A DNA stretch of 34,669 nt, from the UHGV virus genome UHGV-0090561; one strand, 5' to 3'. The position numbers and the translations under genes are program-made. Numbering within the stretch: the stretch's first letter is position 1; each line of letters begins with the position of its first letter. Under the pieces are notes generated by a model, which saw only the letters and a list, made by a program, of their open reading frames with translations, searched no databases and was not told the DNA's origin. This stretch comes from a virus. Below are positions 6,612 through 29,332 of this stretch, one piece after another.

Positions 6612-7402
6612 TTACGCCAGTTGTACGGACACGAACTCATCAGGGTCAGCCAGCAGCATCAGCGGTGCTGACTGAATCATGGTGAACTCACGCGCAGGAT
6701 CGCCGGTGGTCACCCAGTTTTTCGGGTAACGGGCAGAGGCGTTAATGCCTTCGCGCTGTGCGTCCGCATCCTGAATGCAGCCATAGGTGCGCAGACCGCG
6801 TGCCTGAGTGTTCCCCAGCACCATCGTGTTGTCCGGCAGGAAGTTCTTTTTGACGCCGTTTTCCACGTACTGCCCGGAATACACGACGATGGCCACATCG
6901 CCATACATCCCCTTATAGGACACCGCTTTACCCAGGTCTTTCACCGCTGTCTCCAGCTCGGAATGAGAGCCGCGACGGGTATCCAGCTTCTCCTTGACGG
7001 CTTTGAAGGAACGGAACAGCGCCCAGCCTTTCGGATCAAACACGATGATATTCACTACACCGCTGGCGTTCAGCGCGTAGGCTTCGATATCGTCGGTCGG
7101 GTCATACGTGGACTTGTCACGCTTGCTCCACTCCGTGCCACCGGACTGTGTGATGTTGTTCGCCGCACTGCGGCCCATATCCACCTCAACCGGATCGAAG
7201 GCTTCACCGGTCATGGTGTATTTGCCCTTAAGCACGGCAGAAACTGCCTGCATCTCTTCGACCTGGGCAATGGCCAGCTCTTCGTCACGCATGTTCTGCA
7301 TGATGATGCGACGGCGACGGTAAGCCGGGTCCGCCAGATTCTGTGGATCTTCATCCGGCAGGCGACGCAGGGTCATCTGCGGATTCACCTCATGCTTGGG
7401 CT
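6612..7402 (-). pseudogene. E: Major capsid protein E, 3' fragment (codons from PKHEVNPQ to end), separated from its 5' part by the insertion
   Basis: Translation ...PKHEVNPQMTLRRLPDEDPQNLADPAYRRRR...VSVQLA matches the C-terminal ~260 aa of lambda gpE; no start codon, and a TAG lies immediately upstream at the junction. Confidence 0.93.
7393..7402. repeat. Left copy of 10-bp direct repeat TGCTTGGGCT (putative att core / target duplication)
   Basis: Identical 10-mer at 18591-18600; both copies lie inside E coding sequence (AAG CCC AAG CA on the coding strand). Confidence 0.8.
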
Positions 7403-8440
7403 ACATGAGTCAATGACGTAAGTATGTGAATGATATAAGAGGAAAAATAGAGCATAATCTCTACCAGAATGACTATGTTGCAATACATGCTGCAATACAC
7501 AGAAATGAATTTACATGCTGTTCGATTATTAAGTTTCATAGCCGAGTTGCAGATCAGCAACTCACCCACCAGCCCAGATAATTTCATTTTCACACTGGAG
7601 GACTCCTTGAAATCAAGGAATCATAATCCTGCCATGTCATCATTCCGGCCTTCTCAGATTTGAGGTGTGCGGAAAAAATAAACGCTATTAAGCAGCTATG
7701 TGGGTACTGCACTTTTTGGGTAGTGCAACTATCCAGCTTCCTCAAATTAAGGATTGTGGAAAAATCAATGAGTCAGGTTTATTCCCCCGTTCTCCCCCAA
7801 TGGGGGTTTTCGAAAGAATCAATGGGTTAGGCCATCGTGCAAATTTGCACTCTGCCAGCCAACGCAATTTTGCGTTATCAGTCCTCAGATGTGAGGGATG
7901 TAGCCAGCTTTTCCCCCAGTGGGGATTATCCAGTTACCGACGGTTTAACCGCCTGTGCCAGCACAACGAAAGAATTTGCGGGTAGCTTTAAACTACTCAC
8001 AACATCCCATCTTACAGGCCGTGCCTTTCTAACTTTTTACAATGCAATAAGTCAGGTAACGCTATGCGTTCCACCGTGTACACCGCGCCAGTAAAACCCC
8101 CGGATTCGTGGTTTTCCTGAATATCAGGAATCTACCGCCGTAACCGCTCCTGCTTCTTCCACTGGTAAGTGTTTTTCGCGCTCTCCCTTCGCTACATGGA
8201 ACGGCGACGATATGGCAACAACTCCAGAACTCTGGTGCGTATGTTGCACATATCCACGCCGTTAAGCTCGATACCGTCACGGCGCATAACCTCAAGCACC
8301 ACACGCGCGTAATTTTCAGCGGTCGTGCTGTCCGACTGCGTTGTCTCCTGTTTGCCTGCTGCCTGATAGATATCACTGGAAACGTGCCGGATAAGTTCCA
8401 GCAGCAGAAAGGCGAGTTGCTACCGCGCAATTGTTGAACA

Positions 8441-8647
8441 AAAAACGAGAAAGGAAACGACACTGTCCAAAAAACACGTTTTCAGCACCTGCTGTTTCCT
8501 TTCTTTTTAGGGGGTATTTATAATAAAAACATTAAGTTACGGCAAAGAAGAACGGAAACGCCTTAAACCGGAAAATTTTCATAAATAGCGAAAACCCGCG
8601 CGCCTTCCGCCCCGTAACGCTCCGGATCACCGGAAAGGACCCGCTCA
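8441..8647. other. cos site of the satellite (cosN/cosB-like), near-identical to the prophage cos
   Basis: About 200 bp aligns almost base-for-base with 24798-25000, including the inverted GAAAGGAAACGAC / CGTTTCCTTTC terminase R-site-like repeats and the segment GCGAAAACCCGCGCGCCTTCCGCCCCGTAACG. Confidence 0.75.
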
Positions 8648-8730
8648 AAAAAAGCGGCCACTGACGTGATTGTTTATGTTCCATGAGCGACAAAACCGCC
8701 CGGAGGCGGTTTCACATAAAACATTTTGCA

Positions 8731-9378
8731 TCAGCGACCAATCACCACAACCTGACCACCATCACCTTCATCTGCCGTGCTGATCTCCTGAGATACCACT
8801 CGCGACCCCACACGCATTTCACCGTACAGAACGGGCAGAACATTGCCCTGGGCAACCATGTTATCCAGTGACGAGAAATACGTGTTCTGCTTACCGTTAT
8901 CCGTTGTCTGTGTGCGGGGAGTTCTGGCTTTCGGTGCCAGCATCTGCGCCACACCACCGAGCACCATACTGGCACCCGCACTATACATTCCTGTAATTGC
9001 TGCCGCTCCTAGCCAACCAGCGGGGTTCCACCACGCCACCGCAATCAGCGCCGCCCCCAGCACGGTCTGAAACACACCGCCACTTTTAGCGCCAGCAAGA
9101 CGCGGTACGATGTGGATCACAGCACCATTCGCCAGCGGCTCATTAAGACGGGCTGATAATTCATTTTCGCCTGCATCCCGCCCGGCAATCCGTACCTGAT
9201 ACCAACCGTCGCTCAGTTTCTGACGAAACGACGGTAGCTGTGTGGACAGAGCTCGGATGGCTTCAGCCCCCGTTTTTACACGAAGGTCGATGCGGTGGCC
9301 GAATCGTTGCAAATCCCCGTAAAGGCAGATTCGTGCCATGCCCGATGACGCCAGAGGGAGTGTGTGCGTCGTTGCCAT
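8731..9378 (-). CDS. Tail assembly protein I-like protein (lambda gpI family)
   Basis: 215-aa ORF MATTHTLPLASSGMARICLYGDLQRFG...QGNVLPVLYGEMRVGSRVVSQEISTADEGDGGQVVVIGR resembles lambda gpI as I recall it (N and C termini conserved, middle divergent); Shine-Dalgarno upstream. Confidence 0.65.
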   Translation of the reverse strand: MATTHTLPLASSGMARICLYGDLQRFGHRIDLRVKTGAEAIRALSTQLPSFRQKLSDGWYQVRIAGRDAGENELSARLNEPLANGAVIHIVPRLAGAKSGGVFQTVLGAALIAVAWWNPAGWLGAAAITGMYSAGASMVLGGVAQMLAPKARTPRTQTTDNGKQNTYFSSLDNMVAQGNVLPVLYGEMRVGSRVVSQEISTADEGDGGQVVVIGR

Positions 9379-9418
9379 TTGTCGGTATACCTCTCTCGTT
9401 TGCTCTGTTGTTCAGAAA

Positions 9419-9802
9419 TTAGCAGATCAACTTATAGCGTCCATTCCGAGCATTGCGGCGTACACGTTCAATCTTGAGGCATAGCGCCGCATCTGGCTTT
9501 TTTGGGACTGGTACACGGCAATATTCAGAAGCGCGAGGAATATTATTTATCCAGTCAATCACTTCGCTTAAATACCAGGCCTTACGCCCTTCCGTAACCT
9601 GCACACGCTCCGGGAACTCTCCACGGGCCTCAAGGTTTAGCAGTGTACGACGACTCAGGGTTGTAAGTTCCATTACCTGATTCATATCAACAAGACGCTC
9701 GCTTAAACGCATTTTGTCAGCGATAGCTTTTAATTCCTCTACAGCTGGATTTGGGTACATAATTTCGGCAATTGGCTTAAGGTCATTGTAATGATTCTGC
9801 AT
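9419..9802 (-). CDS. AlpA-like helix-turn-helix protein with N-terminal extension
   Basis: 127-aa ORF with GGGGGA Shine-Dalgarno; C-terminal half TTLSRRTLLNLEARGEFPERVQVTEGRKAWYLSEVIDWI resembles the AlpA/excisionase-type HTH. Confidence 0.6.
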   Translation of the reverse strand: MQNHYNDLKPIAEIMYPNPAVEELKAIADKMRLSERLVDMNQVMELTTLSRRTLLNLEARGEFPERVQVTEGRKAWYLSEVIDWINNIPRASEYCRVPVPKKPDAALCLKIERVRRNARNGRYKLIC

Positions 9803-9813
9803 TGTATCCCCCT

Positions 9814-10155
9814 TTACACACGAGCCAGCGGCTGAACAGAAATACCTGAGCCAACAAACGCTGCAACCTTTACTGACAGTTCTTTTACAGACTCAGGCCA
9901 GTTCAGAGCATCAACATTTAAGACACCTGTCTTATAGACCTGAGCCTGTGTTTTTTTCGCGGTGTCGATTTGTACAGCGGATACATAAACCGCTTTACCT
10001 ACGCTCGTACCATCCCATACCACCAGTGCACCTGTTGCATCTTCCTGCATCAGTGGCGTAAATGCAGGAATTACCCCTTTATTAGCTGAAAATATCCCCA
10101 GCGTAGTAACCAGTGCTTCAGTGCCAGCCATGAGTTCAGTGTAATGAGTAGCCAT
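9814..10155 (-). CDS. Head decoration protein, lambda gpD family (divergent)
   Basis: 113 aa; aligns by eye with lambda gpD (FTPLMQEDATGALVVWDGTSVG vs [22 protein letters not shown]; AFVGSGISV vs [10 protein letters not shown]); strong Shine-Dalgarno AAGGGGGAG. Confidence 0.7.
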   Translation of the reverse strand: MATHYTELMAGTEALVTTLGIFSANKGVIPAFTPLMQEDATGALVVWDGTSVGKAVYVSAVQIDTAKKTQAQVYKTGVLNVDALNWPESVKELSVKVAAFVGSGISVQPLARV

Positions 10156-10164
10156 TGCTCCCCC

Positions 10165-11205
10165 TTAGCCAATGCGAACGGTAACAAAACGATTGATGCG
10201 AGCCGGTATTGGCTGTGGTGCTGAATGTGTCTGCACATATTCAATAGCCGGATCACCAGGCACAATATAGTTTTTCGGTGCAAGTTCGGCTTTAGTCAGC
10301 CCCATTCGGATTAGCTCCGGGTCCTGAATACCGCCATAGGCGACAATCCCCTGAAGAGCCGTATTGCCAAGCACCATCAAATCAGGATCAAGGAAATGTT
10401 TTTCAGTTCCGTCCTCGTCGGTATAACGCCCGCTGTAAACAACAATCGCAACATCGCCCATATACCCTTTAAAACTCACCGAATCACCAAGGTCTTTAAG
10501 GGCCGTTTCCAGTTCGGAATTAGAACCACGACGGGTATCCAGAGCCTCTTTTATCGCTCTGAATGAACGGTATTTCTTCCATACATTACCGCCCATAATG
10601 ATGATATTAGTGACGCCCTCACTAAATTCTGCGTAGTTCTCAATATCATCATTTGGATCAAAAGTTTCTTTATCCTTACCTGACCACTCAGCACCGCCAG
10701 ACTGAGTGATGATATTTTGTGGTTTAATATTCCAGTCCAGCTCATAACGTTCAATACCATCGCCCTCAATGATATTTTTCCCCGTTGTGATTGCCTGAAC
10801 GGCAAGCCATTCAATACGTGCACGAATAGCTTTAGCTTGATTTACAATCGCCTGTTTAACTTTAATATTACGCGCCCCAAAAGCATTGTATTGCTCAGGT
10901 GATACACCAGCAGGGCGCACAGCTAACTTATTTGGATCAATGCTGCTTTTCGGCTTCATATAGCCTGGACGAATTGTTTTTGATTCGTACCCTTCGTCAC
11001 GTGAAACTTTACTACCCACCATAGGAGAACAAAACGCTGCAATTGGGATATTTGGATCGTCGATTGTATCAAGAATAATATCGCGCGATTCAAACATTAC
11101 CGAGCGAGTAAAAAACAAACGGGTAAACAACGCATTTAGTTGTTTTTGTACATCTACAGCATTAACCACCTGTACAAGCTGGGTAGGCGAATATAAATCA
11201 ACCAT
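10165..11205 (-). CDS. Major capsid protein, lambda gpE family (divergent satellite copy)
   Basis: About 346 aa from the ATG with AAGAGG Shine-Dalgarno; central block NIITQSGGAEWSGKDKETFDPNDDIENYA...AIKEALDTRRGSNSELETALKDLG...GDVAIVVYSG is clearly homologous to lambda gpE but far more diverged than the prophage copy. Confidence 0.85.
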   Translation of the reverse strand: MVDLYSPTQLVQVVNAVDVQKQLNALFTRLFFTRSVMFESRDIILDTIDDPNIPIAAFCSPMVGSKVSRDEGYESKTIRPGYMKPKSSIDPNKLAVRPAGVSPEQYNAFGARNIKVKQAIVNQAKAIRARIEWLAVQAITTGKNIIEGDGIERYELDWNIKPQNIITQSGGAEWSGKDKETFDPNDDIENYAEFSEGVTNIIIMGGNVWKKYRSFRAIKEALDTRRGSNSELETALKDLGDSVSFKGYMGDVAIVVYSGRYTDEDGTEKHFLDPDLMVLGNTALQGIVAYGGIQDPELIRMGLTKAELAPKNYIVPGDPAIEYVQTHSAPQPIPARINRFVTVRIG

Positions 11206-11422
11206 ACGCATCCTCTTTGCATTCATTAAAAATAATTGTGGATATATGCTATCACCGATATTTGTCATGCGAATACATGCAACCGAGTGCAATGTTGTAT
11301 AAAGTTTTGGGATGACAACTTCAGCGCGGATAATTAGTGTTAATATCTTCACTCCCTTTGGTCGGGATTTATGTAGCATGCCGGAAAATTTATTTTTTTC
11401 CGGCCTTTTTTATTGGCAATAT

Positions 11423-11872
11423 TTAAAACGGAATATCATCTCCCCATTGCTCATTATCTCCCACTGGTGGATGGCTTCCTTGCTGATCTGCCTGTTGTTT
11501 TGCTCTGTTCAGTGCGTCAGTAGCCTGCCCCTGTTGGCCTTTTTTGCCGCCCGGTCGCACCGTTCGCGCACTGATTACGCTGTCTGCGATAACCTGCCAG
11601 CCCTGCCGCGTTTCACCGTTCTGTCCAGTCCACTGACTCACCTGCATGTTACCCGCCACGCTCAGGAGTTCGCCTTTGTGATGCTTTGCCAGCGCGTCGG
11701 CTTGTCTGCCAAACGCCAGAACAGATAACCACATCGTCGCCTGACCGTCATCCGACTGGCTGCAGGGCAGTGATACCGCCATACGCGCCAGCGTCATGGG
11801 GGTGCCCTTGCTGGTCTGTTTTGTCTGCGGGGCGTCCACCAGCCGCCCGTAAGCTGCTATTTGCGCCGTCAT
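11423..11872 (-). CDS. ssb: Single-stranded DNA-binding protein
   Basis: 149-aa ORF with OB-fold-like N-terminus, Gly/Gln-rich linker and the characteristic acidic tail ending DDIPF. Confidence 0.85.
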   Translation of the reverse strand: MTAQIAAYGRLVDAPQTKQTSKGTPMTLARMAVSLPCSQSDDGQATMWLSVLAFGRQADALAKHHKGELLSVAGNMQVSQWTGQNGETRQGWQVIADSVISARTVRPGGKKGQQGQATDALNRAKQQADQQGSHPPVGDNEQWGDDIPF

Positions 11873-12126
11873 GCTGCCTGCTCTCCGGACTTAATATTGA
11901 TGGTTGTCACTTCCTCCGCTTCGGCAATCTCCCGTTCGGTCAGCGTGGCAAAGTTTGCAGCCGCCGTTGTCATGAATGCGCTTATCAGTTCGGGATGTGC
12001 TTTCGCGTATCCTTCCCCGGCGTTGCGGTCTATTGCCTTAATCGCCACCCTTAGCCAGTGTTCAGCCATATCAAGGGCGCGGTAATGTGGCTTTATATGT
12101 TTGTTCAGTTTTCCTGATGTGTGCAT
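11869..12126 (-). CDS. Hypothetical protein (satellite, between ori and ssb)
   Basis: 85-aa ORF whose stop overlaps the ssb start (operon-like); no recognisable family. Confidence 0.45.
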   Translation of the reverse strand: MHTSGKLNKHIKPHYRALDMAEHWLRVAIKAIDRNAGEGYAKAHPELISAFMTTAAANFATLTEREIAEAEEVTTINIKSGEQAA

Positions 12127-12169
12127 TTTTATTTTTACCCCCTCGTTTAAAAAGTTTTTTGTGCACCAC

Positions 12170-12404
12170 CACCTTGTCTACCTTGTCTACCTGATTAGTT
12201 ATCAGGCCAGTAATGGCGCGGGTTTCAGGGAGGTAGACAGCCCCAAATAGCTGTCTACCTCATCTCTACCCGTATCCTTACCTGTCTACAAAAATGGGTA
12301 GATAAGGTAGATAACAGGTAGACAGTGAAAAATAGTTATCTACCTGCATTAATACATTGAAATAAAAGTATTTTCTTTCAGTCAGGTAGACAAGGTAGAT
12401 AACC
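12170..12404. repeat. Iteron array (putative satellite replication origin)
   Basis: About 10 copies of GGTAGA(C/T)A / its reverse complement TGTCTACC in both orientations, immediately downstream of the primase-helicase gene. Confidence 0.8.
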
Positions 12405-12415
12405 ATTGCCATTTT

Positions 12416-14167
12416 TTATAAAAACGCATCGCAATCATCAGTAGTCGTTGCGTTGGTCTGCGTGACTCCCTTAACTTTTCGCGTAATATATTCATATCCG
12501 TAAACTTTCGCCGCTGACCTCATAGCCTTTCCGAACTCATTCACGCTCAAACATTTCCCCTTTCCTGTGTATGCCATGAAGGCCATATAGACACGGTAAA
12601 GGCTGTTTCTGGTCGTGTACTTCACGGAGTCACCACCACCGCCCATCATTAGCCCACGAGCTTCCTCCAGAAACTCAAGCGCCGCGCAAAGCTCAACAAC
12701 TGGATCCGTTTGCTGCTTTATTGCCAGAGCTTCATCACCGTCACGCTGTTCCAGTAGTAAAGCCCTTGCCTTTTCAGGGTCAGCAAAGTTAGCCAGCAAG
12801 CGGCGGATAATTACGGGGATTTCTGCCGCTATCTTTTCCGGTAATTCCTTGTCTTTTTCGTCCTCCCTTACAATGTTGTCGAACCGGAAAATCACCCGAC
12901 GGCGTGACACACCTCCGGCCCGTTCGGTAAAGATCATCGGGTCGTTATTGGTTGCCAGTACCACCGCCCTTATTATCGTCGTGAATCGCTTCTCATATTT
13001 CGGATTGATTTCAACGGGATCGCCTCCCGTGATTTTCTTGATGCCCGTGCCTTCCCCCGTATATTTCGGCTGATCGGCAAGGACGATAAGACGACTCCCG
13101 ACAACCTGCGCGCGCCCTCCTGCATCATCGAGTGATGTCATCTCTGCGCTTACGGTGTTCTGTTTGCCTGCAAGCAGGGTGGCAATATGGGTAAATGTAC
13201 TCTTACCGCTTCCCCCGTCTCCGGTGGCCTCAATGAACATCTGCCAGTCGTAGCGGTTCGCCATAATCATGTATAACGCGGCACATATACGCATCATCTT
13301 GCGCGGGTCTTTTCCTGCAGCATGTTCAAGCCATTTATGGAAATTTGGCGCATTATCGCGGATGTTTTCCCCTGCTACTGGTGGCGTGTACTCAATACCA
13401 TTGTGCGTGGTGCTCCAGTGCTCCGGCGAGTGCGGAGAAAATTCCCCCGTTTTCAGATTAAGCACACCATTAGTGAACGGTAGCAAATCACCGGACGGCT
13501 CCCCCATGGGGGCTGCAATAACTTTTAACGCTTCCACGGCGTTATTGATTACACGTTTGCTGAACGTGGCCCTGTGCTCTGAATAGATCGCCACCATTTC
13601 GCGGCTCAGCTCCATTGTGCTGACCGGACACCATACCCCGCCGCGCCATACGTGGACGATTTCACTTTCTGCATGAACACACACACCATCAAAGCGATCG
13701 GCAAGTAGTTGTGCACGTTCACTGTCTGCCATCTGTGAAAGTTGCGCCTTTTGCTTCGTCGGAAGATTAAGCACCAGACTTTCCCCACGCTCGCATTCCT
13801 CTTTGAGTCGCGGCAACTGGTCGGATAAATCCACTGGGCTGGTGTCAGTAATCCCCGCGTATTCGTGTACGGTCTTCACTCCAGCCACAGCCAGTAACGT
13901 AACAATCTGCGTCATGCTGTGCTCTGTGATATGTCCTGCGCGGTAAACACGCACACACTGACGATCTTCATCAATGATCCGGTAATCGGTGATATTTTTC
14001 AGTTGCTCATCAGCCAGCACGACAGGCGGCACATCGTCGGCGGCAATATGTTTACCCGCCCATTCCTGCCACTCTTTCGCATGGCTCCACGCATCACTAC
14101 CTGCAAAGATGATTACCTCTGTCAGTCTGTCGCGTGGCTGTTTTTTTAAGTTCGGTGCCAGTTTCAT
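12416..14167 (-). CDS. Primase-helicase (P4-family primase C-terminal / SF3 helicase-like replication initiator)
   Basis: 583-aa ORF with Walker A GDGGSGKST and downstream NTPase-like motifs typical of P4 alpha-type / PICI Pri-Rep proteins; followed by iterons. Confidence 0.8.
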   Translation of the reverse strand: MKLAPNLKKQPRDRLTEVIIFAGSDAWSHAKEWQEWAGKHIAADDVPPVVLADEQLKNITDYRIIDEDRQCVRVYRAGHITEHSMTQIVTLLAVAGVKTVHEYAGITDTSPVDLSDQLPRLKEECERGESLVLNLPTKQKAQLSQMADSERAQLLADRFDGVCVHAESEIVHVWRGGVWCPVSTMELSREMVAIYSEHRATFSKRVINNAVEALKVIAAPMGEPSGDLLPFTNGVLNLKTGEFSPHSPEHWSTTHNGIEYTPPVAGENIRDNAPNFHKWLEHAAGKDPRKMMRICAALYMIMANRYDWQMFIEATGDGGSGKSTFTHIATLLAGKQNTVSAEMTSLDDAGGRAQVVGSRLIVLADQPKYTGEGTGIKKITGGDPVEINPKYEKRFTTIIRAVVLATNNDPMIFTERAGGVSRRRVIFRFDNIVREDEKDKELPEKIAAEIPVIIRRLLANFADPEKARALLLEQRDGDEALAIKQQTDPVVELCAALEFLEEARGLMMGGGGDSVKYTTRNSLYRVYMAFMAYTGKGKCLSVNEFGKAMRSAAKVYGYEYITRKVKGVTQTNATTTDDCDAFL

Positions 14168-14463
14168 TTTTTGCCCCTGAATGCGTTAATCATGCTTTTC
14201 ATTTTCTGGATGTTTCCCCGCGCTTTTTCCCTGCTGGTGGGCTTACTGCGGGGTGCGGCATATACCAGGGAAAAATCACGCCGGAACTGATAAACAGGCA
14301 TCACACAGTCATAGCTATACCCCTCACGGCGGTAAGTGATGCGCCGTTCTGCCACGCCTTTAATCGTTACCGTGCCGCCGTATTTATCGCGGTAAATATC
14401 GCCGTTCATAAATTCAGGCCGAGCGGGGCCGCTGGCAATAAAGCCAGAATTTTTCATTTCCAT
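14164..14463 (-). CDS. Hypothetical protein (upstream of primase, ATGA overlap)
   Basis: 99-aa ORF translationally coupled to the primase start; no recognised family. Confidence 0.5.
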   Translation of the reverse strand: MEMKNSGFIASGPARPEFMNGDIYRDKYGGTVTIKGVAERRITYRREGYSYDCVMPVYQFRRDFSLVYAAPRSKPTSREKARGNIQKMKSMINAFRGKK

Positions 14464-14480
14464 ATTATTTATTCTTCGAC

Positions 14481-14702
14481 TTAACTCGACTTATTTGATA
14501 GCAGGGCACTATTTATTGCGTCATTGAGTTTTTCTGCTGCTTCATCAATAAGTGACAACAGGCCATAAGCAATATTTGCATCTTCATTGTCATTTATGCA
14601 ATCAAGCCACATATTTAATATTGCTTTTGCTGAATTATTTAAAGTTAATGAACTCTCTGCACATGCTAACAATTTAAAAAAGACTTCCCGTTCTGTATTC
14701 AT
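14481..14702 (-). CDS. Hypothetical small protein
   Basis: 73-aa ORF in a tightly packed co-directional array; AT-rich. Confidence 0.4.
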   Translation of the reverse strand: MNTEREVFFKLLACAESSLTLNNSAKAILNMWLDCINDNEDANIAYGLLSLIDEAAEKLNDAINSALLSNKSS

Positions 14703-14894
14703 TTAATCCCCCACCAGCTTACTTTCTTCCTCAATCAGGAAACTAGCGACACTTCCCGAAAGGCGCGCCAGTAGGCTCGCCAGCGCGGATATATCAGCAT
14801 CTGTAATTTTGTTCGGGTATACCTCAAGAAGGCGGCAAATAATTTCTGTTTGGTGCGCACGTTCAGCGGCTTCGTGTAATGTGATTTCCTGCAT
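14703..14894 (-). CDS. Hypothetical small protein
   Basis: 63-aa ORF abutting its neighbours without gaps. Confidence 0.4.
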   Translation of the reverse strand: MQEITLHEAAERAHQTEIICRLLEVYPNKITDADISALASLLARLSGSVASFLIEEESKLVGD

Positions 14895-15079
14895 TAATGC
14901 ACCTCTTTTAATTCATACACTGCTGAAATAATGACTTGTGATAAGCCATATTCTGATGATTCGCTTCTCACCGCAGCAATAGCCGTCTGAACATTAACAG
15001 CCTTCACGTTCTGAGTGATACCAATTGTGTGGCCTCGTGGGTTAACAGCTCGGGCAAATACACGGAAGGTTTTAAGCAC
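14894..15079 (-). CDS. Hypothetical small protein
   Basis: 61-aa ORF overlapping its neighbours by a few nt. Confidence 0.4.
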   Translation of the reverse strand: MLKTFRVFARAVNPRGHTIGITQNVKAVNVQTAIAAVRSESSEYGLSQVIISAVYELKEVH

Positions 15080-15275
15080 GGCACACCTCCTGACGAATAC
15101 GGGCAGCGAATACCATCACGCAGCCAGTTGGGGATTGCTGGCGGGCTTCCTGTTCGCTGATGGCCTCGATGGTAATCATGCGCGGTTGTGCCGTACTCAA
15201 GGCGATAAAACGCCAGATGTATTTATTCAGGTTGTGCGAGTTCCGCCCTTGCGGGTGTGTGGTATGATTTCTCAT
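15072..15275 (-). CDS. Hypothetical small protein (first gene of the leftward satellite operon)
   Basis: About 67 aa from the internal ATG preceded by a GAGG Shine-Dalgarno; the upstream part of the track ORF is not supported. Confidence 0.4.
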   Translation of the reverse strand: MRNHTTHPQGRNSHNLNKYIWRFIALSTAQPRMITIEAISEQEARQQSPTGCVMVFAARIRQEVCRA

Positions 15276-15474
15276 AGCTACCTCGATACTGTTGCTATCG
15301 TTGGTGGTTAGAAGCCCGTTGGTGTTCCTAGCACCTTCGGGCTTTGCTTTTTTAAGTGCCCCCGTGTTAAGGTGGTCACCTAACAATGAAAAGGCTAATT
15401 CAATAGGTGGTCACTTGTCAACGATCAAACGCGATAAAAGTCCTAAGGGTGATGGGCAATCTCCACAATTCAGA

Positions 15475-15606
15475 ATGCGAATTTCTCCAGAGCTAAAAGA
15501 GCAATTCGACAAAGAAGCGCAGAGCGACGGCATAAGCCTAGCCAACTGGCTTAAAGAATTAGGGCGCAAAGAGCTGCTACGGCGCGGTATTGAACCAAAA
15601 GGATAA
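15475..15606 (+). CDS. Ribbon-helix-helix (Arc/CopG-like) DNA-binding protein, putative
   Basis: 43-aa product MRISPELKEQFDKEAQSDGISLANWLKELGRKELLRRGIEPKG fits the RHH pattern; weak Shine-Dalgarno, so the start is uncertain. Confidence 0.45.
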   Translation: MRISPELKEQFDKEAQSDGISLANWLKELGRKELLRRGIEPKG

Positions 15607-15633
15607 GAATAATTGAAGTCAAGGAGCTAACAC

Positions 15634-15990
15634 ATGAAATACGAATTCTTCGCAACAAGTAGCAGTAGTTTGGATGTATACATAGTCACTGTATCAAACG
15701 ATTCTGGCTCGCTAATCATGACTTGTAATTGTCCAGCAGGAAGTAAAGGTATTCTATGTAGACACCGTAAAGCTTTAATTACCGGAAAAATCCGCGGTAT
15801 ATTCACTCCCCCAAGAAGGAATAATCCTGAAAAATTACAAGAAGCTATAAATTTAATAGCCACATATGGCATAGATAAAACATTAAAGTTGTACACTGAT
15901 GAGTTAGAACGAGCAGAACAGACTTGGATAAGTGTTCGCGATAATTTGAGAGCAATGATAAACGCTCTTGTTGAACCACCTAAATATTGA
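15634..15990 (+). CDS. SWIM zinc-finger protein, small
   Basis: 118-aa ORF with AAGGAG Shine-Dalgarno; motif CNCPAGSKGILCRH matches the SWIM CxCxnCxH signature; followed by an intrinsic terminator. Confidence 0.7.
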   Translation: MKYEFFATSSSSLDVYIVTVSNDSGSLIMTCNCPAGSKGILCRHRKALITGKIRGIFTPPRRNNPEKLQEAINLIATYGIDKTLKLYTDELERAEQTWISVRDNLRAMINALVEPPKY

Positions 15991-16056
15991 ACTGTTCACA
16001 TTGCCTATCAGGCGATAACCTCGTATTCTGATTAAGGCTAACTATATACTCACATT

Positions 16057-16080
16057 GGCGACCAATTCTGGTCGCCTTTA
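16057..16080 (+). terminator. Rho-independent terminator after the SWIM gene
   Basis: GGCGACCA-attc-TGGTCGCC hairpin followed by TTTA; position hand-counted. Confidence 0.6.
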
Positions 16081-16121
16081 TCCACCATTTTTATAATATC
16101 ATAGATTAAAAGTGTTAATCC

Positions 16122-16952
16122 TTACCCCCTGAATGGAATTGATGAGGATTTAATTTCCACAGAACTAAATCCTCTTGAATCCAAGAACATTTTTATACCA
16201 GCCTCAATAAAATCATAATCGTTTGTCGGGCCAATTGTAATGCTTTTAATTGGTAACTTTCTATTATCTTTATTATCAATGATGATATAAGGGATGATCC
16301 CATTATTATTTATTCTGAAGTGCACATCTGGCATTTGCATCCACGGAGTAAATACCAATCTAAATTCATTCTCTTCGATAAAACTAGGATGTTTAAAAAA
16401 TGGGATGTATTTAGATATAAATTGATACGTAGAGACCATTGTTACAAAATGATCATTCATTTCTTTAATATTAATACCATTACAAGAAAAAAACTCCCCC
16501 AACTCCTTACTCATCTTAGTAATATCGTTATTATTTGAATATATAACATCATGTGCAACACAATTTAAATAAATATTTTGAGAAAAGCTCACAAGTTCAT
16601 CCGCATCAAACTCAATGCAAACACCCTGTTTATTTCCGTAACCTCTCCACTGACTTAACTTATCGTTTTCCTTACAAAAAGAGATGCTATAAACATGTTT
16701 ATCAATCCCTTTTTCTTTTTGTAACCTCCCTTTCTCATACATGTCAAGAGACTTGAGCAAAATAGTTTTCTTATCTTTTGGAATGATATTATCATCAACT
16801 ATTTTAATTGTATTTCGAAAGCATTCACATCCATGGTTAGACTCCTCTTTATCATTTAAGAAATATATGTTTGTAGCCCATAAAGAATTAGAGTCTAATA
16901 TACCTTTCAAACCAAAAAGATCTGTATAATGAAATATAGCCACAATGCCCAC
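16122..16952 (-). CDS. DUF2971-like protein (satellite cargo, function unknown)
   Basis: 276-aa ORF, markedly AT-rich versus its neighbours; N-terminal FHYTD...YFLNDKEE resembles the DUF2971 motif as I recall it (not verified by HMM); GTG start 7 nt after the alpA stop. Confidence 0.55.
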   Translation of the reverse strand: MGIVAIFHYTDLFGLKGILDSNSLWATNIYFLNDKEESNHGCECFRNTIKIVDDNIIPKDKKTILLKSLDMYEKGRLQKEKGIDKHVYSISFCKENDKLSQWRGYGNKQGVCIEFDADELVSFSQNIYLNCVAHDVIYSNNNDITKMSKELGEFFSCNGINIKEMNDHFVTMVSTYQFISKYIPFFKHPSFIEENEFRLVFTPWMQMPDVHFRINNNGIIPYIIIDNKDNRKLPIKSITIGPTNDYDFIEAGIKMFLDSRGFSSVEIKSSSIPFRG

Positions 16953-16959
16953 CTAATAG

Positions 16960-17190
16960 TTAAGTTGTTTCCCACTCACCTCGAATCCATGCCTGCACTT
17001 CTGAAAGACGATATGCAACAGCAGTGGAACCAATCTTGATCCGCTTAGGAAATTTTCCTTCCTTCTCCAGCTTCCAGCGTGTGCTGTTCGCAAGAGTGGT
17101 TAGCTCCCGACATTCTTTCTCACGGATCATTCGGTCAATGTTAGGAATGTACTCCAGACCCTTTTTATCAACAATTGCCATTTTTTTCAT
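16960..17190 (-). CDS. alpA: AlpA-family transcriptional regulator / excisionase-like protein
   Basis: 76-aa ORF immediately downstream of int; ...RELTTLANSTRWKLEKEGKFPKRIKIGSTAVAYRLSEVQAWI is the AlpA HTH pattern. Confidence 0.8.
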   Translation of the reverse strand: MKKMAIVDKKGLEYIPNIDRMIREKECRELTTLANSTRWKLEKEGKFPKRIKIGSTAVAYRLSEVQAWIRGEWETT

Positions 17191-17191
17191 G

Positions 17192-18427
17192 CTAACCAGC
17201 CTTTTGTTTGAGGATTGTCACTTTTGAATCAGCAGCTGCGATGCTATTGAGATATGTAGTCCAGAGTTCCAGAGCATCCAGTTTTTTAGCCATAAACTTA
17301 CTCCGGTTGTAAACACCTGCCACGCCAGGTAGCGCATGGCCTAACAGTTGTTCTACTACATAAAATTCAACACCGAGATCACTTAGATGAGTAGATAGCG
17401 TTCTTCTAAGGTCGTGTAGTGACCATTGTTTTTCATGGCCCAAACGTTTACCGATTTTCCCCCCAATCTTGCTTACGCTTTCTCTAATTCGCAGACTTCC
17501 CAGCACATAACCAGTATGTTTTGTCTCTTCGTGAACATCCGTTACCCACTGTCGTAGAATTTCAGGTACTGGTCTGACGATTTCAACACCAGTTTTTGAG
17601 TGATCTTTTGGCACAGTCCAAACCCAACTTTCGAGATCCCATTCGCTCCATTCTGATAATCGGGCTTCACTCATTCGACATCCAAATACTGTACAAAGCA
17701 CAAACATTTTTCGCGTGTATTCAGACATTAGTTTTAAATCAGGCTCGACAAAAATTGCCTTCCAGAGCTGGCCCAGTTCGGCTTCATCCAGAACCCGATC
17801 CCGCTTACCTGCAATCTGCCCCACATCACTCATGCGCAAATCCTTTAAAGCATCACACGTCGCGTACTGGCGTACCCGACAAAAACGAAGAGCTAATTTA
17901 GTGTCAGAAAAAACATACGCCGCCATAACTGGTGCATTACGTTTAATTCGGTCAAAACAGTCCAGCCATTCATATAGGTGAGTGTCATTTACGGGCAAAT
18001 GACCGATATAGGGAAAGATATGCTTTCGAAATCTGCCAAGCGTTACAGCATGAGTTTTACGACGCACCTTACAGTAATTTTCATACCAGTAATTTAGTGC
18101 ATCCTCCACTGTGACCGGCTTTAAGCGTTCTTCAGCCTGAATCTTAATCTGGATACGCGGATCACGTTTGTCAGCCAACCAAGCACGGCACTCGTCGCGC
18201 TTTTCCCTTGCCTGTTTGAGTGACATATCAGGATATTTACCCAACGTTAGCCAGACCGGAGCAGCCCGGCCACCTGCTAACCTGTAGAAGAAAACAAAGC
18301 TCACAGCCCCCTTGGTACTCACACGAATAGAAAGCCCCTTTCCATCAGCAATGGTGATCTGCTTTTCTCTGGGTTTCCCCAGATATCCTTTAAGTGCTTT
18401 GTCGCTCAGTTTGTTCTCGCCAGCCAT
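17192..18427 (-). CDS. int: Tyrosine recombinase (phage integrase family)
   Basis: About 411 aa from the internal ATG (MAGENKLSDK...); C-terminal catalytic region with HDLRRT...LLGH...Y-type motifs; adjacent to the right junction and direct repeat. Confidence 0.88.
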   Translation of the reverse strand: MAGENKLSDKALKGYLGKPREKQITIADGKGLSIRVSTKGAVSFVFFYRLAGGRAAPVWLTLGKYPDMSLKQAREKRDECRAWLADKRDPRIQIKIQAEERLKPVTVEDALNYWYENYCKVRRKTHAVTLGRFRKHIFPYIGHLPVNDTHLYEWLDCFDRIKRNAPVMAAYVFSDTKLALRFCRVRQYATCDALKDLRMSDVGQIAGKRDRVLDEAELGQLWKAIFVEPDLKLMSEYTRKMFVLCTVFGCRMSEARLSEWSEWDLESWVWTVPKDHSKTGVEIVRPVPEILRQWVTDVHEETKHTGYVLGSLRIRESVSKIGGKIGKRLGHEKQWSLHDLRRTLSTHLSDLGVEFYVVEQLLGHALPGVAGVYNRSKFMAKKLDALELWTTYLNSIAAADSKVTILKQKAG

Positions 18428-18589
18428 TTTTAGCCCCAAAAAGCAATACAAGCTGCAATACAGAGATGATTGCAACACACAGATAACGAGGAAAATCCAG
18501 TGAAAGCGCCAGATAAACTTATTCTTTATTATCAAAAGATTAAGTGTAAAAACCAGCAACTACACGAAAGCCTCAGAAAGCCATGCTAA

Positions 18590-18835
18590 GTGCTTGGGCT
18601 TGACATATCCCGGTGTAAATTCAGAGGTGGAGCCGCCACGGGAGCGGATAACCTCACCGGAAACAATCGGCGAAACGTACAGCGCCATGTTTACCAGTCC
18701 CGGAATTTGTGAGAGATAGACTTTCTCCGTGGTGAAGGGATAGCTCTCACGGAAAAAGAGACGCAGAAACAGCGGATCAAACTTAAATTTCTTCTCATTT
18801 GCCGCCAGCAGCTGGGCGGTTGTGTACATCGACAT
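18590..18835 (-). pseudogene. E: Major capsid protein E, 5' fragment (first ~81 codons), reading into the insertion
   Basis: MSMYTTAQLLAANEKKFKFDPLFLRLFFRESYPFTTEKVYLSQIPGLVNMALYVSPIVSGEVIRSRGGSTSEFTPGYVKPKH matches the lambda gpE N-terminus, then diverges (LAWLSEAFV, stop) at the junction. Confidence 0.93.
18591..18600. repeat. Right copy of 10-bp direct repeat TGCTTGGGCT
   Basis: Identical to 7393-7402; lies at the codons KPKH of E. Confidence 0.8.
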
Positions 18836-18890
18836 AAAAAAATCCCGTAAAAAAAGCCGCACAGGCGGCCTTTAGTGATGAAGGGTAAGG

Positions 18891-19223
18891 TTAAACGATG
18901 CTGATTGCCGTTCCGGCAAACGCGGTCCGTTTTTTCGTCTCGTCGCTGGCAGCCTCCGGCCAGAGCACATCCTCATAACGGAACGTGCCGGACTTGTAGA
19001 ACGTCAGCGTGGTGCTGGTCTGGTCAGCATCAACCGCAAGAATGCCAATGGCAGCACCGTCGGTGGTGCCATCCCACGCAACCAGCTTACGGGTGGAGGT
19101 ATCCAGCATCAGCGGGGTCATTGCAGGCGCTTTCGCACTCAATCCGCCGGGCGCGGTTGCCGTATGTGCCGGGTCACTGTTGCCCAGCGGCTGGTAATGG
19201 GTAAAGGTTTCTTTGCTCGTCAT
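18891..19223 (-). CDS. D: Head decoration protein D
   Basis: From the ATG after a TAAGGGA Shine-Dalgarno: [41 protein letters not shown]... matches lambda gpD. Confidence 0.95.
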
Positions 19224-19232
19224 AAACATCCC

Positions 19233-19838
19233 TTACACTGGTGTGTTCAACAAATCGTTAACGGCATCAGATGCCGGGTTACCTGCAGCCAGCGGTGCCG
19301 GTGCCCCCTGCATCAAACGATCCAGCGCAGTGTCACTGCGCGCCTGTGCACTCTGTGGTGCAGCTGCCAAAATGCGGCGGGCCGTTTCCACGGTCATACC
19401 GGGGGTTTCGGCCAGCACGCGTGCCTGTTCTTCGCGTCCGTGAGCCTCCTCACAGTTGAGGATCCCCATAATGCGACTGTTTTCTGCCGCAACCGCTGCG
19501 GTGATCTGCGCGTTCACGTCCGGCTGCGCAGCGCTGGCGTTCTCGCCCTCCGTCGCTTGCACCACGCCAGTAACGTCAGCCTGCGAAGCAGTGGCTGAAA
19601 CAGTTGTTGATTGAGTCTCTTTGGTCATTCGCCCTCCTGAGAGACGGGATTTACGTGCATCCAGTGCATCACGCATAACGGTGATCGCATCGGTGCTGTT
19701 AACAAGTTCATCAGCCAGTCCGGCATCAATGGCCTCCTGACCGCTGTACACTGCAGCCTCGGTATCCAGCACAGCCTGCACGGACAGGCCGGTATATGCC
19801 GACACTTTCTGCGCAAACATCTGGCGGGTTGCATCCAT
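19233..19838 (-). CDS. Nu3: Scaffolding protein Nu3 (in-frame internal start within C)
   Basis: Internal ATG (MDATRQMFAQKVSAYTG...) gives the C-terminal 201 codons of C, the lambda Nu3 arrangement. Confidence 0.8.
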   Translation of the reverse strand: MDATRQMFAQKVSAYTGLSVQAVLDTEAAVYSGQEAIDAGLADELVNSTDAITVMRDALDARKSRLSGGRMTKETQSTTVSATASQADVTGVVQATEGENASAAQPDVNAQITAAVAAENSRIMGILNCEEAHGREEQARVLAETPGMTVETARRILAAAPQSAQARSDTALDRLMQGAPAPLAAGNPASDAVNDLLNTPV

Positions 19839-20532
19839 CCGGGACTGCAGTGTTTCCCGGACGTCATCCGGAAGATGGCTGTAGGGGTTGCCATCCACCT
19901 TATGGCTGCCGCTGTAAATCAGCGTGATTTCCACACCCTGTTTCTCCAGCGCAGCACCGTAATTACTGTGAGCCATCATGACGCCGATGGAGCCTGTCCG
20001 GGCGGTCTGCGTGACCAGACGTCGGGAGGCGGCGCTGGCAAGCAGTTGACCTGCACTGCAGTTCATGTCGTTGGCCAGCGCCCATACCGGCTTTATGTCA
20101 CGCACACGGGCGATGATGTCAGCGCAGTCAAATGCTCCCGCCACCATTCCGCCTGGCGTGTCCATATCGAGCAGAATGCCGTCCACCATCGGGTCGCTGG
20201 CAGCCTGTTGCAGACGGGCGATAATGCCGTTGTAACCGGTCATCCCCGAGTACGGCTGCAGCGCCCGCGTCCGGCTGACCAGCGTGCCGGACACCGGCAG
20301 CACGGCGATGCCGTTCATGACCTGATAACTGCGGGCCTGTCGTGGTCCGTCATCATCACCGGATAATGCCAGCGTCGCGAGTGCCTCCTGGGCAGTCAGG
20401 CTGTCGCCGGACACCGCATCCGTCAGGCGGCTGATCCCAAGCTGGCCTGCAAGCGCACAAAAGAAAACCCGCGCATAGGCGGGTTCAAGCATCAGCGGCT
20501 CATTAAAGGCCATGCTGGCAATATGCGGGAGA

Positions 20533-20552
<20 letters not shown>
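19233..20552 (-). CDS. C: Head maturation protease / scaffold C
   Basis: From a GTG start with AGGAGGA Shine-Dalgarno: (V)TAELRNLPHIASMAFNEPLMLEPAYARVFF... matches lambda gpC. Confidence 0.92.
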
Positions 20553-24233
<3,681 letters not shown>

Positions 24234-24259
<26 letters not shown>

Positions 24260-24779
24260 TCAGCAACCCCGGTATCAGTTCATCCAGCGCGGCTGCTTTG
24301 TTCATGGCTTTGATGATATCCCGTTTCAGGAAATCAACATGTCGGTTTTCCAGTTCCGGAAAACGCCGCTGCACCGACAGGGGGATCCCGTCGAGAATAC
24401 TGGCAATTTCACCTGCGATCCGCGACAGCACGAAAGTACAGAATGCGGTTTCCACCACTTCAGCGGAGTCTCTGGCATTCTTCAGCTCCTGTGCGTCGGC
24501 CTGCGCACGCGTAAGTCGATGGCGTTCGTACTCAATAGTCCCTGGCTGCAGATCTGTCTCGCTGGCCTGCCGCAGTTCTTCAACCTCCCGGCGCAGCTTT
24601 TCGTTCTCAATTTCAGCATCCCTTTCGGCATACCATTTTATGACGGTGGCAGAGTCATAAAGCACCTCATTACCCTTCCCACCGCCTCGCAGAACGGGCA
24701 TTCCCTGCTCCTGCCAGTTCTGAATGGTACGGATACTCGCACCGAAAATGTCAGCCAGCTGCTTTTTGTTGACTTCCAT
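24234..24779 (-). CDS. Nu1: Terminase small subunit Nu1
   Basis: 181-aa ORF MEVNKKQLADIFGASIRTIQNWQEQGMPVLRGGGKGNEVLYDSA... matches lambda gpNu1; adjacent to cos. Confidence 0.96.
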
Positions 24780-24797
24780 TGTTCATTCCACGGACAA

Positions 24798-25000
24798 AAA
24801 CAGAGAAAGGAAACGACAGAGGCCAAAAAGCCCGTTTTCAGCACCTGTCGTTTCCTTTCTTTTCAGAGGGTGTTTTAAATAAAAACATTAAGTTACGGCG
24901 AAGAAGAACGGAAACGCCTTAAACCGGAAAATTTTCATAAATAGCGAAAACCCGCGCGCCTTCCGCCCCGTAACGTTCTGGATCGCCGGAAAGGACCCGA
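24798..25000. other. Prophage cos region (cosB R-site-like repeats and cosN-like segment)
   Basis: Reverse complement resembles the lambda left-end region (AAACGACAGGTG.../CGTTTCCTTTCT... R sites, IHF-like AT-rich stretch), but the cosN-equivalent differs from lambda GGGCGGCGACCT; duplicated at 8441-8647. Confidence 0.75.
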
Positions 25001-25148
25001 AAATGATAATACATATCAATTACACTTAAAGGGGGGGGGGTTAATTTGTTCACATCAACACTCCGGACCCCAATGGCCTTCTACTCTGGTTTTGCCATAA
25101 AATAGTCCTGATACATATTCATATCAGTTAGTCATATACGGAAAAAAT

Positions 25149-29111: not shown

Positions 29112-29332
29112 ACGTCGACCTCTCAGCCGACACGGTTGGAGTCCCAGACCAATTATCGAGTCGAAGTTACCAACTTGGCGGTTATCTTTTGGGAGCCGCC
29201 CCTTCATTCCCAAAACCTTTATTGCAGAAAAATCTATATCCTGGAAATTGGATAGTCAACCCTTACGACACCTACGAACAGTTGCACATACAACATTGGC
29301 AAAATATCAGATTTACACGGAATATATGCCTT

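Follow-up and report, generated by a model that had tools for sequence, protein, structure and literature searches.

Late transcription of a lambda-like prophage very probably reads into the int-alpA operon of a satellite embedded in its capsid gene

Does late transcription of a prophage switch on the excision genes of a satellite that sits inside it? The question is raised by a 34,669-nucleotide stretch of virus genome UHGV-0090561, analysed here in full and called the window. The original prediction placed a 5' fragment of capsid gene E (E') in the prophage late operon, followed on the same strand by int and alpA, and both the coordinates and the Pfam matches agree with this layout. It further proposed that late read-through would express int, alpA and a DUF2971-like gene. 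This proposal is mechanistically sound, as regards Q, a pR'-like promoter, a tR'-like hairpin and co-orientation, but the idea is not new: the arrangement, its distribution and the read-through hypothesis were already published in 2023 by Tommasini, Mageeney & Williams (PMC10111431), who described the helper-embedded PICI (HE-PICI) family and hypothesized that helper late transcription continues into int. The features of the junction and of the satellite are as follows.

18591..18835, minus strand: E', the 5' fragment of the helper major capsid gene, codons 1-82 (ATG at 18835; Pfam Phage_cap_E positions 1-78, E 4.9e-15)
18591..18600, minus strand: attL core AGCCCAAGCA, 10 bp, defined by an identity block and of the core type published for E:Phage_cap_E:80
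17192..18427, minus strand: satellite tyrosine integrase gene int, 411 aa (Pfam Arm-DNA-bind_3, Phage_integrase and SAM-like domain)
16960..17190, minus strand: alpA, 76 aa (Pfam Phage_AlpA, 3e-15), starting 1 nt past the int stop
16122..16952, minus strand: DUF2971 gene (Pfam DUF2971, 1.2e-11), starting 7 nt past the alpA stop, third gene of the operon
7403..16121, minus strand: rest of the satellite, including an accessory zone and DUF4222
12416-14167, minus strand: D5_N primase (Pfam)
11423-11872, minus strand: satellite SSB gene
10165 to ~11205, minus strand: satellite E-like capsid gene
9814-10155, minus strand: satellite D-like decoration gene
9419-9802, minus strand: second AlpA-like gene of the satellite
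8731-9378, minus strand: lambda tail I-like gene of the satellite
8438-8643, minus strand: satellite cos, found by cos comparison
7393..7402, minus strand: attR core AGCCCAAGCA, with the doubled motif 84-96 nt upstream, at 7479-7498
6612..7392, minus strand: 3' part of E, codons 83-341, with FI, FII, Z, U, V, G, T and H downstream on the same strand

The piece from 17,192 to 18,835 is the attL junction of an HE-PICI of the 11capE type, 11,198 bp in length, inserted at site E:Phage_cap_E:80 and co-oriented with E, the gene for the major capsid protein of the lambda-like prophage that harbours it, all on the minus strand. The founding element of this type is Eco567.11capE, in prophage 50icd of E. 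coli NRG857c, and the published cores of the site group are agcccaagca, aacccaagca and agccgaagca (PMC10111431). In the window, AGCCCAAGCA occurs exactly twice on the minus strand (18600-18591 and 7402-7393). E is interrupted between codons 82 and 83 (18835-18591 and 7392-6612), a split late gene without an attP replacement copy, as in HE-PICIs, and excision in silico at the core yields an intact 341-aa E. HE-PICI membership is further indicated by the co-orientation of int, alpA and the primase gene with the interrupted E, and by the integrase, which belongs to the HE-PICI clade as judged from DNA identity and the late-gene locations of its nearest homologues rather than from a tree. Measured from the start of the attR core, the doubled motif GTATTGCA is found at -96 and -84; measured from the start of the attL core, it is found at +139, and a second motif half, GTATTGCT, comes 12 nt beyond the attL-side GTATTGCA. 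These offsets agree to within ~10 bp, depending on the reference point, with the published HE-PICI doubled motif tgTGTATTGCantgTGTATTGCa, ~81 bp upstream and ~132 bp downstream of the attP centre (PMC10111431). With a size in the class range of about 10-15 kb, with int, alpA, D5_N primase, SSB and cos, and lacking a complete set of phage structural or lysis genes, the element also has the makeup of a Gram-negative PICI (Fillol-Salom 2018; PMC6092414). Its late genes are limited to the E-like, D-like and I-like genes; its cos is 91% identical to that of the helper (188/206, no gaps), and the sole phage-collection match of its ORF-poor ~1-kb 3' end (7403-8440) is a 60-bp KilA-N piece.

The first three satellite genes are packed as one operon. 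Homologues of 411 aa, among them a cluster of 1098 members with 99% identity, fix the int start at ATG 18427. The 1-nt int-alpA spacing recurs at other loci (L004-L007 and L011), and a Klebsiella HE-PICI within the protease gene likewise has a DUF2971 gene after alpA.

The E' frame continues for 9 codons into foreign DNA beyond the core and stops at 18562-18560, and the untranslated gap from there to the int ATG spans 18559-18428. The original prediction of a ~130-bp gap with no obvious terminator held up: the gap measures 132 bp and contains no convincing terminator in two scans. An automatic scan, which omits hairpins preceded by an A-run (the D-E intergenic hairpin described below and the hairpin after the I-like gene), found no terminator on the minus strand between 16500 and 19500. 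A more permissive hairpin enumeration, which yields many weak matches, returned for the gap only weak, imperfect hairpins of -5 to -9 kcal/mol without an adjacent U-tract. Shuffled controls contain ~2.7 terminator-like sites per 3 kb, both strands counted, so a terminator-free gap of 132 bp is what chance predicts; it therefore carries little weight and does not by itself count as evidence. An attenuator or riboswitch-like element in the gap was considered and dropped, folding being no better than that of shuffled sequence (z = 0.09). An Rfam scan of the whole window at gathering thresholds gave zero matches, so that no known regulatory RNA is present in the gap or elsewhere in the window.

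The gap constitutes the attP arm and contains an IHF-consensus site as well as a doubled arm motif.

18530..18542, plus strand: IHF-consensus site TATCAAAAGATTA (WATCAANNNNTTR), read from the sequence, predicted to bind IHF
18442..18476, minus strand: inverted half-site GTTGCAAT and doubled motif CTGTATTGCAGCTTGTATTGCT, 15-50 nt upstream of the int ATG
18521..18550, minus strand: weak sigma-70-like hexamers TTTACA, 18 nt, AAGAAT (9/12 matches), a candidate satellite promoter for int
18849..18870, minus strand: D-E intergenic terminator-like hairpin GGCCGC CTGT GCGGCT followed by 7 T (-9.3 kcal/mol), ending 13 nt upstream of the E' ATG

The few columns of alignment A1 that are conserved across site groups include the TTGAT core of the IHF-like site, and every aligned HE locus has the doubled motif unchanged. 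Binding of Int or IHF to these arm sites, located 15-100 nt upstream of int, could obstruct an incoming polymerase.

The weak hexamers bear on a different account of how int is expressed. According to this account, int and alpA are switched on mainly from one or more satellite promoters, by a diffusible helper product together with AlpA self-activation, as in EcCICFT073, and read-through occurs without being needed. Induction of alpA in trans, self-activation and the ability of AlpA alone to drive excision and replication are documented for EcCICFT073 (PMC6092414). Moreover, close relatives of the integrase work without any upstream late operon: one (L010) sits at fis with a divergent gene upstream of int, and others occupy tRNA-Phe or off-target chromosomal sites (PMC10111431). 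Because of these relatives, the int-alpA module must have a promoter of its own. The hexamers at 18550 to 18521 are a candidate, and other site groups show A/T-rich -10-like hexamers close to the same alignment columns. Against this, the region holds 4 promoter-like matches where shuffles predict 4.0, so the weak hexamers are not evidence of function; the alignment of the gap shows no int promoter conserved across site groups, only the IHF-like core and the doubled motif; and int and alpA leave no room between them for a separate PalpA. The account also leaves unexplained the strict co-orientation seen at every late-gene site. We consider it rather unlikely as the main route. Since the family can express int and alpA without an upstream late operon, read-through may nevertheless add to the trigger rather than be the trigger.

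Late read-through requires a late operon that reaches the junction, and the window contains one, with the following parts.

29333..30022, minus strand: late antiterminator gene Q, 229 aa, full length (PHROG 304 'anti-termination protein Q-like', 7.2e-108; Pfam PF06323, 1.2e-93)
29231..29259, minus strand: pR'-like late promoter TTGACT, 17 nt, TAGATT, just downstream of Q, from a consensus scan (predicted function)
29112..29133, minus strand: tR'-like hairpin of 9 pairs and a T-run, tail CTATTTCTTT, ~100 nt downstream of the promoter, a putative terminator for Q override
24794..24999, minus strand: helper cos region upstream of Nu1, with cosN GGGCGGAAGGCG, then cosB, read from the sequence
18891..24779, minus strand: helper late head genes Nu1, A, W, B, C/Nu3 and D (ORFs; Nu1 = PHROG 57; self tblastn map)

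Q covers positions 1-217 of the 220 of the PF06323 profile, the pR'-like site has the position of lambda pR', and the tR'-like hairpin presumably resembles the lambda 6S leader. Q, promoter and hairpin lie ~10.8 kb upstream on the same strand. Every gene from Nu1 to E' is co-oriented, and the head gene order is homologous in two other E-inserted loci (L001 and L002). A Q-antiterminated lambdoid late operon is thus recognizable from Q, the promoter-like site, the hairpin and the co-oriented lysis, head and tail genes, with an antisense DUF3800 gene lying between pR' and the holin gene. From this layout, late transcription very probably reads into int.

This conclusion would lose its regulatory meaning if the composite were a decaying prophage remnant without late transcription in the source strain. 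Many HE-PICI helpers look truncated, and virions have not been recovered (PMC10111431); in addition, the immunity, replication and integration regions of the helper lie outside the window, which limits judgement of its intactness. Yet Q, holin, endolysin, cos and Nu1 through H show unbroken reading frames within the window, E is intact once restored, the homologue in NRG857c excises and replicates on induction (PMC10111431), and the junction, taken as 601 bp, is present in 172 of 5426 complete E. coli genomes. A decaying remnant is thus very improbable.

Hairpins upstream of the junction also bear on what a terminator would mean. Kosakonia and Cedecea helpers retain the GCCGC/GCGGC stem of the D-E hairpin, with loops that differ, and the stretch is 99.7% identical in sequenced lambda-like phages; our guess is that the automatic scan misses it by extending the stem, pairing the upstream A's with the T-run. 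In lambda, Q-modified RNA polymerase is terminator-resistant. A terminator between E' and int, which had been put forward as a refutation of read-through, would therefore be a weak one, both because such a polymerase ignores terminators and because the native phage already has a terminator-like hairpin just upstream of the E start.

It is the recurrence of the arrangement that is non-random. The Kosakonia and Cedecea helpers carry the junction too, with E' proteins only 91% and 62% identical. In all HE loci retrieved, int is found immediately downstream of a truncated late gene in the same orientation, four different late genes being interrupted: E (the window, L001, L002 and L012), portal (L004, L007 and L011), protease (L005/L006 and L009) and tail gene T (L008). 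A genome-contig search with the single Int protein gave 3 loci only, and the context of diverged Int homologues came from exact-protein look-ups. At each HE site int is the first satellite gene met, after a gap of ~105-165 nt, and co-orientation holds at 14/14 published sites (PMC10111431). At most 84% of the satellite is covered by any complete E. coli genome. Among sequenced lambda-like phage genomes, none of the 80 that match carries the junction, and the match stops exactly at the core (18591), consistent with excision before packaging.

Co-orientation might instead have been selected so that late transcription and replication cross the 11 kb satellite without head-on conflict, the satellite capsid genes and FI to J still being expressed and read-through into int being a by-product. 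Until excision, the helper genes downstream of E (FI to H) do need transcription across the satellite, the majority of satellite genes, the E-like and D-like capsid genes among them, are on the same strand, and the source paper stresses passive late transcription of capsid and other genes (PMC10111431). This explanation is compatible with Q-dependent triggering rather than exclusive of it, and it does not address why int is always the first satellite gene met, after so short a gap. Excision kinetics require, moreover, some late-phase signal. In NRG857c treated with mitomycin C, the composite excised at 1 h and replicated, and the satellite excised, precisely, only at 2 h; in the same experiment composite excision involved only 2-11% of icd copies, a second prophage was active and virions were not recovered (PMC10111431). 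As the sole explanation of co-orientation, conflict avoidance appears quite improbable. The LF82 prophage paper holds nothing relevant on RNA or virions of an E-embedded satellite.

The late satellite excision in NRG857c fits late-phase control. Taken together with the anatomy of the window, it leads us to favor Q-dependent read-through into int-alpA as the trigger of satellite excision at this 11capE-type attL site, with a probability of roughly 55%. Upon induction, helper Q would modify RNA polymerase at pR'. The terminator-resistant polymerase would then transcribe S, R, cos and Nu1 through D, pass the D-E hairpin, E' and the attL arm, and enter int, alpA and the DUF2971 gene, which are the first genes of the satellite on its path. 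Int and AlpA, the latter possibly self-amplifying, would excise the satellite from helper-satellite composites that have already replicated. Excision would restore E, and the satellite circle would replicate with its own primase and be packaged through its helper-like cos. The read-through transcript, its Q dependence and its trigger role are what we infer from the anatomy described here and from the late, precise excision of the founding element.

A stricter version of Q-dependent read-through, which we advance only tentatively and hold to be doubtful, is that induction is gated purely in cis by the modification of RNA polymerase: the D-E hairpin and tR' would stop ordinary polymerase, and only the Q-modified enzyme would reach int-alpA. 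If so, the satellite would sense the late phase of its helper without a diffusible inducer, and Q alone would suffice for excision from an uninduced lysogen. This reading sharpens the published hypothesis. To that hypothesis we add the chance-level absence of terminators, the attP-arm nature of the gap, the D-E hairpin, the upstream Q, pR' and tR', co-orientation at four late genes and the weakness of a terminator as refutation.

What sets helper-embedded satellites apart from others is the possibility of communication in cis between parasite and helper. If Q-dependent read-through fires int-alpA, the satellite would need no inducer protein. Its excision would be timed after helper replication, the helper capsid gene would be delayed and the satellite capsid gene would be given a head start. 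The arrangement would then be a simple timing device and also a clean system in which to study mobile-element conflict.

Among known systems, the closest is the founding element of NRG857c, which shares with the window the insertion codon, the orientation, a matching satellite-side attL, the doubled TGTATTGC motif and the same int-alpA module, within a C-to-alpA junction region of 95.8% identical DNA. The block of SSB, E-like capsid, D-like decoration and second AlpA genes is 97.8% identical, and both satellites have a helper-like cos. By contrast, the NRG857c core is AACCCAAGCA, whereas that of the window matches other published members of the site group. The accessory zone holds DUF2971, SWIM and HicB-like genes in the window and a different set, including YlcI/YnfO-family and Icd-like proteins, in NRG857c; the primase regions give no BLASTN match to each other; and at the 3' end the lambda tail I-like gene and ~1 kb without clear genes stand in place of the DUF262/HEPN genes of NRG857c.

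EcCICFT073 (Fillol-Salom et al. 2018, PMC6092414) is, like the satellite of the window, an int-alpA-primase-cos satellite of lambdoid helpers. There, AlpA is the activator that starts the cycle; its expression suffices by itself for excision and replication, lambda and phi80 lysogens induce alpA in trans, and AlpA activates its own promoter (PMC6092414). Unlike the element described here, EcCICFT073 is chromosomal and away from its helper, has separate Pint and PalpA promoters that were tested, and has no cis link to a late operon. The late operon of lambda itself (pR', qut, tR') resembles that of the window in its Q, promoter, early terminator-like hairpin and long co-oriented lysis, head and tail operon; the window differs in having a Q of Pfam PF06323, an added 11.2 kb satellite and the antisense DUF3800 gene.

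Regulated gene integrity offers a further parallel, since the skin element in sigK of B. subtilis and the comK prophage of Listeria each split a gene that timed, precise excision restores. In the window, by contrast, the split gene belongs to the helper phage, and the regulation presumably serves the satellite. Satellite P4 has an AlpA/Vis-type factor next to int, as here, but integrates in a tRNA gene, uses a P2-type helper and is not known to be embedded in helper late genes. Its integrase clade is related to the HE-PICI integrases (PMC10111431).

The junction between helper and satellite is laid out as the original prediction described: E′, the 5′ fragment of the helper capsid gene E, is followed on the minus strand by the satellite int and alpA genes after a gap of 132 nt, with coordinates, strand and gap length all in agreement. 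Ahead of E′, the late head operon comprises Nu1, A, W, B, C/Nu3 and D, in that order; the E′ frame continues past the att core for 9 foreign codons to a stop at 18560. This frame (18560-18835) would encode a 91-aa peptide, 82 E residues plus the 9 foreign ones, expressed at the level of a late gene for as long as the satellite stays integrated.

Features of the late control region, the junction and the far end of the satellite
29259->29231, minus: predicted pR′-like promoter
29133->29112, minus: predicted tR′-like hairpin
24779-24234, minus: Nu1, first gene of the lambda-type late head operon
19229-18891, minus: D, last late head gene before E′
18870-18849, minus: D-E terminator-like hairpin, GGCCGC-CTGT-GCGGCT plus 7 T, its end 13 nt before the E start
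18835 (ATG) to 18591, minus: E-derived part of E′, 82 N-terminal residues of lambda E, Pfam Phage_cap_E positions 1-78
18600-18591, minus: att core AGCCCAAGCA at attL, end of the E-derived sequence
18427-17192, minus: int, tyrosine integrase of 411 aa, start set by 411-aa homologues
17190-16960, minus: alpA, abutting the int stop
16952-16122, minus: DUF2971 gene, beginning 7 nt past alpA
7402-7393, minus: second copy of the att core at attR, its sole recurrence
attR core to 6612, minus: remainder of E, then FI, FII, Z, U, V, G, T, H

In silico removal of the 11,198 bp between the cores yielded an intact 341-aa E. The removed segment carries int, alpA, an accessory zone, DUF4222, D5_N primase and SSB genes, as well as E-like capsid, D-like decoration, second AlpA-like and lambda tail I-like genes, and its cos is 91% identical to that of the helper (188/206), with identical cosN. 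The insert is a PICI-type phage satellite embedded in its own helper, and we regard an inert composite remnant as very improbable.

The E-like capsid gene (9814-11205 together with the D-like gene) shares ~45-48% identity with helper E in the C-terminal 240-270 residues; for the D-like gene and its helper counterpart the figure is 38%. Because its own capsid gene lacks the att core, the satellite is unable to integrate into itself. The tail assembly protein I homologue (8731-9378; Pfam Lambda_tail_I, 5.7e-24), with a strong terminator-like hairpin at its 3′ side (ACCGCC-TCCG-GGCGGT-TTTG, ~8692-8712), is an unexpected tail-tip gene, all other late genes of the satellite being capsid genes. No convincing ORF was found in the ~1 kb between cos and attR at the satellite 3′ end (7403-8440), where the phage collection yielded a single match, 60 bp of a KilA-N gene; in relatives this place is taken by other cargo, namely a terminase small subunit gene, DUF262/HEPN genes or IS elements. 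A plus-strand ORF pair (15292-15990), opposite to the other satellite genes, encodes SWIM zinc-finger (118 aa) and weakly HicB-like (104 aa) proteins and stands in the path of any read-through past the DUF2971 gene.

The original prediction also held that the gap has no obvious terminator. Only weak, imperfect hairpins are indeed present: in our own permissive scan, the best reached -9.3 kcal/mol over 40 nt and, from the arm-site repeats, -8 kcal/mol, neither adjoined by a U-run; the folding energy resembles that of shuffled sequence (z = 0.09), and Rfam gave no match. This absence carries little weight, since shuffled sequence gives ~2.7 terminator-like sites per 3 kb, both strands together, and 132 nt are expected to lack one by chance. 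When the 220 nt preceding int were aligned across helper-embedded loci and one PICI at fis, two features proved conserved: a TTGAT core, which in the window belongs to a perfect match to the IHF consensus (TATCAAAAGATTA, 18530-18542, plus strand), and a doubled motif that lies 15-45 nt before the int ATG (18463-18442) and has an inverted half-site ahead of it. Judging from these sites, the gap is an attP arm, whose content and length would be set by recombination functions. In the fis-site PICI (L010:3960-3990), a variant doubled repeat, TGTATAAAC twice, lies upstream of int in the position of the doubled TGTATTGCA of helper-embedded PICIs (window 18442-18463), suggesting that a doubled arm-type site of differing sequence may be general to the wider integrase clade.

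The D-E hairpin falls just outside the interval first considered (18427-18835) and is missing from the list of the built-in terminator scan. Lambda-like phages carry it natively: sequenced phages share 99.7% identity with the helper half of the junction. The stem, but not the loop, is also shared by the Kosakonia and Cedecea helpers. Lambda late transcription crosses terminator signals, the Q-modified polymerase being terminator-resistant. A terminator between E′ and int, proposed at the outset as refuting read-through, would thus not do so, and makes a weak test with a terminator-like hairpin already native upstream. Ordinary polymerase is probably halted before E′, so that upstream transcription into int would be specifically Q-dependent.

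To compare junctions, loci were retrieved by exact-protein look-ups of integrases 50-57% identical to the window Int. In every helper-embedded locus retrieved, int follows a truncated late gene of the same orientation at a distance of 105-165 nt.

Late genes interrupted in the retrieved loci, each with int co-oriented
L004, L007, L011: portal gene
L005/L006, L009: ClpP-type protease gene
L008: tail gene T of an HK97-like operon

Helpers of Kosakonia and Cedecea are interrupted at the E site as well, with E′ identities of only 91% and 62%, respectively. Another conceivable reason for co-orientation is selection for transcriptional pass-through, in which case expression of int would be incidental; we consider this unlikely. 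The junction is absent from sequenced phage genomes: in each of the 80 matching records the match stops exactly at the core, consistent with excision before packaging. P0004, a 391-aa metagenomic protein 81% identical to the window Int over 77% of its length, joins a Phage_Nu1 domain to an integrase catalytic domain; this may reflect a gene call that fuses the two sides of a junction in the Nu1 gene, or a rearrangement.

A full-length Q gene lies upstream on the same strand, and Q, the pR′-like promoter and the tR′-like hairpin are ~10.8 kb from the junction, followed by holin, endolysin and cos. A DUF3800 gene (28308-29111, plus; PADLOC candidate PDC-M04A, 7.7e-35) lies antisense between the Q/pR′ region and the holin gene, where late transcription has to traverse it head-on. 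A minus-strand run of 10 C (~25030-25040) precedes the matched helper cos by ~30-40 nt in the direction of the late operon and may be a tract prone to slippage or one sensitive to sequencing.

The most likely mechanism, at roughly 55%, is Q-dependent late read-through driving int-alpA and satellite excision. SOS induction would turn on helper early genes, and the composite would excise and replicate, as shown for the NRG857c homologue. Q would then act at pR′, and terminator-resistant transcription would pass tR′ and the D-E hairpin, cross E′ and attL and enter int-alpA-DUF2971. Int and AlpA would release the satellite from composites present in many copies (for the homologue, excision was shown to be late and precise), restoring E, while the satellite would replicate and be packaged via cos. 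A satellite promoter of its own, induced in trans, is a possible but clearly less favored trigger. In the model PICI EcCICFT073, lambda or phi80 induces alpA in trans, AlpA switches on its own promoter and by itself suffices for excision and replication (PMC6092414). The close relative at fis has a divergent gene upstream of int, and near-identical integrases occur in tRNA-Phe and in 28 off-target chromosomal insertions (PMC10111431); it follows that the int-alpA module does not need a late operon for its expression. Against such a promoter, the weak promoter-like hexamers in the gap (18550->18521) are no more frequent than chance. Given these relatives and the trans induction of EcCICFT073, Q-dependent read-through may act as trigger, booster or by-product.

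"Helper-embedded PICIs" were described by Tommasini, Mageeney and Williams in 2023, with Eco567.11capE of E. coli NRG857c (site E:Phage_cap_E:80) as founding element, 201 elements at that site and 491 across 14 late-gene sites, every one pointing the same way as the late gene it interrupts; the attP core has a doubled motif, tgTGTATTGCantgTGTATTGCa, on either side (PMC10111431). Read-through of helper late transcription into int was already put forward there as a hypothesis; after mitomycin C, the NRG857c composite excised at 1 h and replicated, and the satellite excised only at 2 h, with no virions recovered (PMC10111431). This timing would fit late-phase control, and the original interpretation appears sound and partly supported, being consistent with these kinetics. 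The few later papers using the term "helper-embedded PICI" add no test of read-through. Both structure and hypothesis are thus in the literature and not new. The published attL agrees with ours on the satellite side, and our core is among the published variants. Of 5426 complete E. coli genomes, 172 contain the junction. By BLAST, C-D-E′-attL-int-alpA is 95.8% and the SSB-capsid-decoration-AlpA2 block 97.8% identical to NRG857c, whereas the accessory zone, primase region and 3′ end have no match in its Eco567.11capE region. With no complete E. coli genome covering more than 84% of it, the satellite is, by these comparisons, a new mosaic genotype within a known class.
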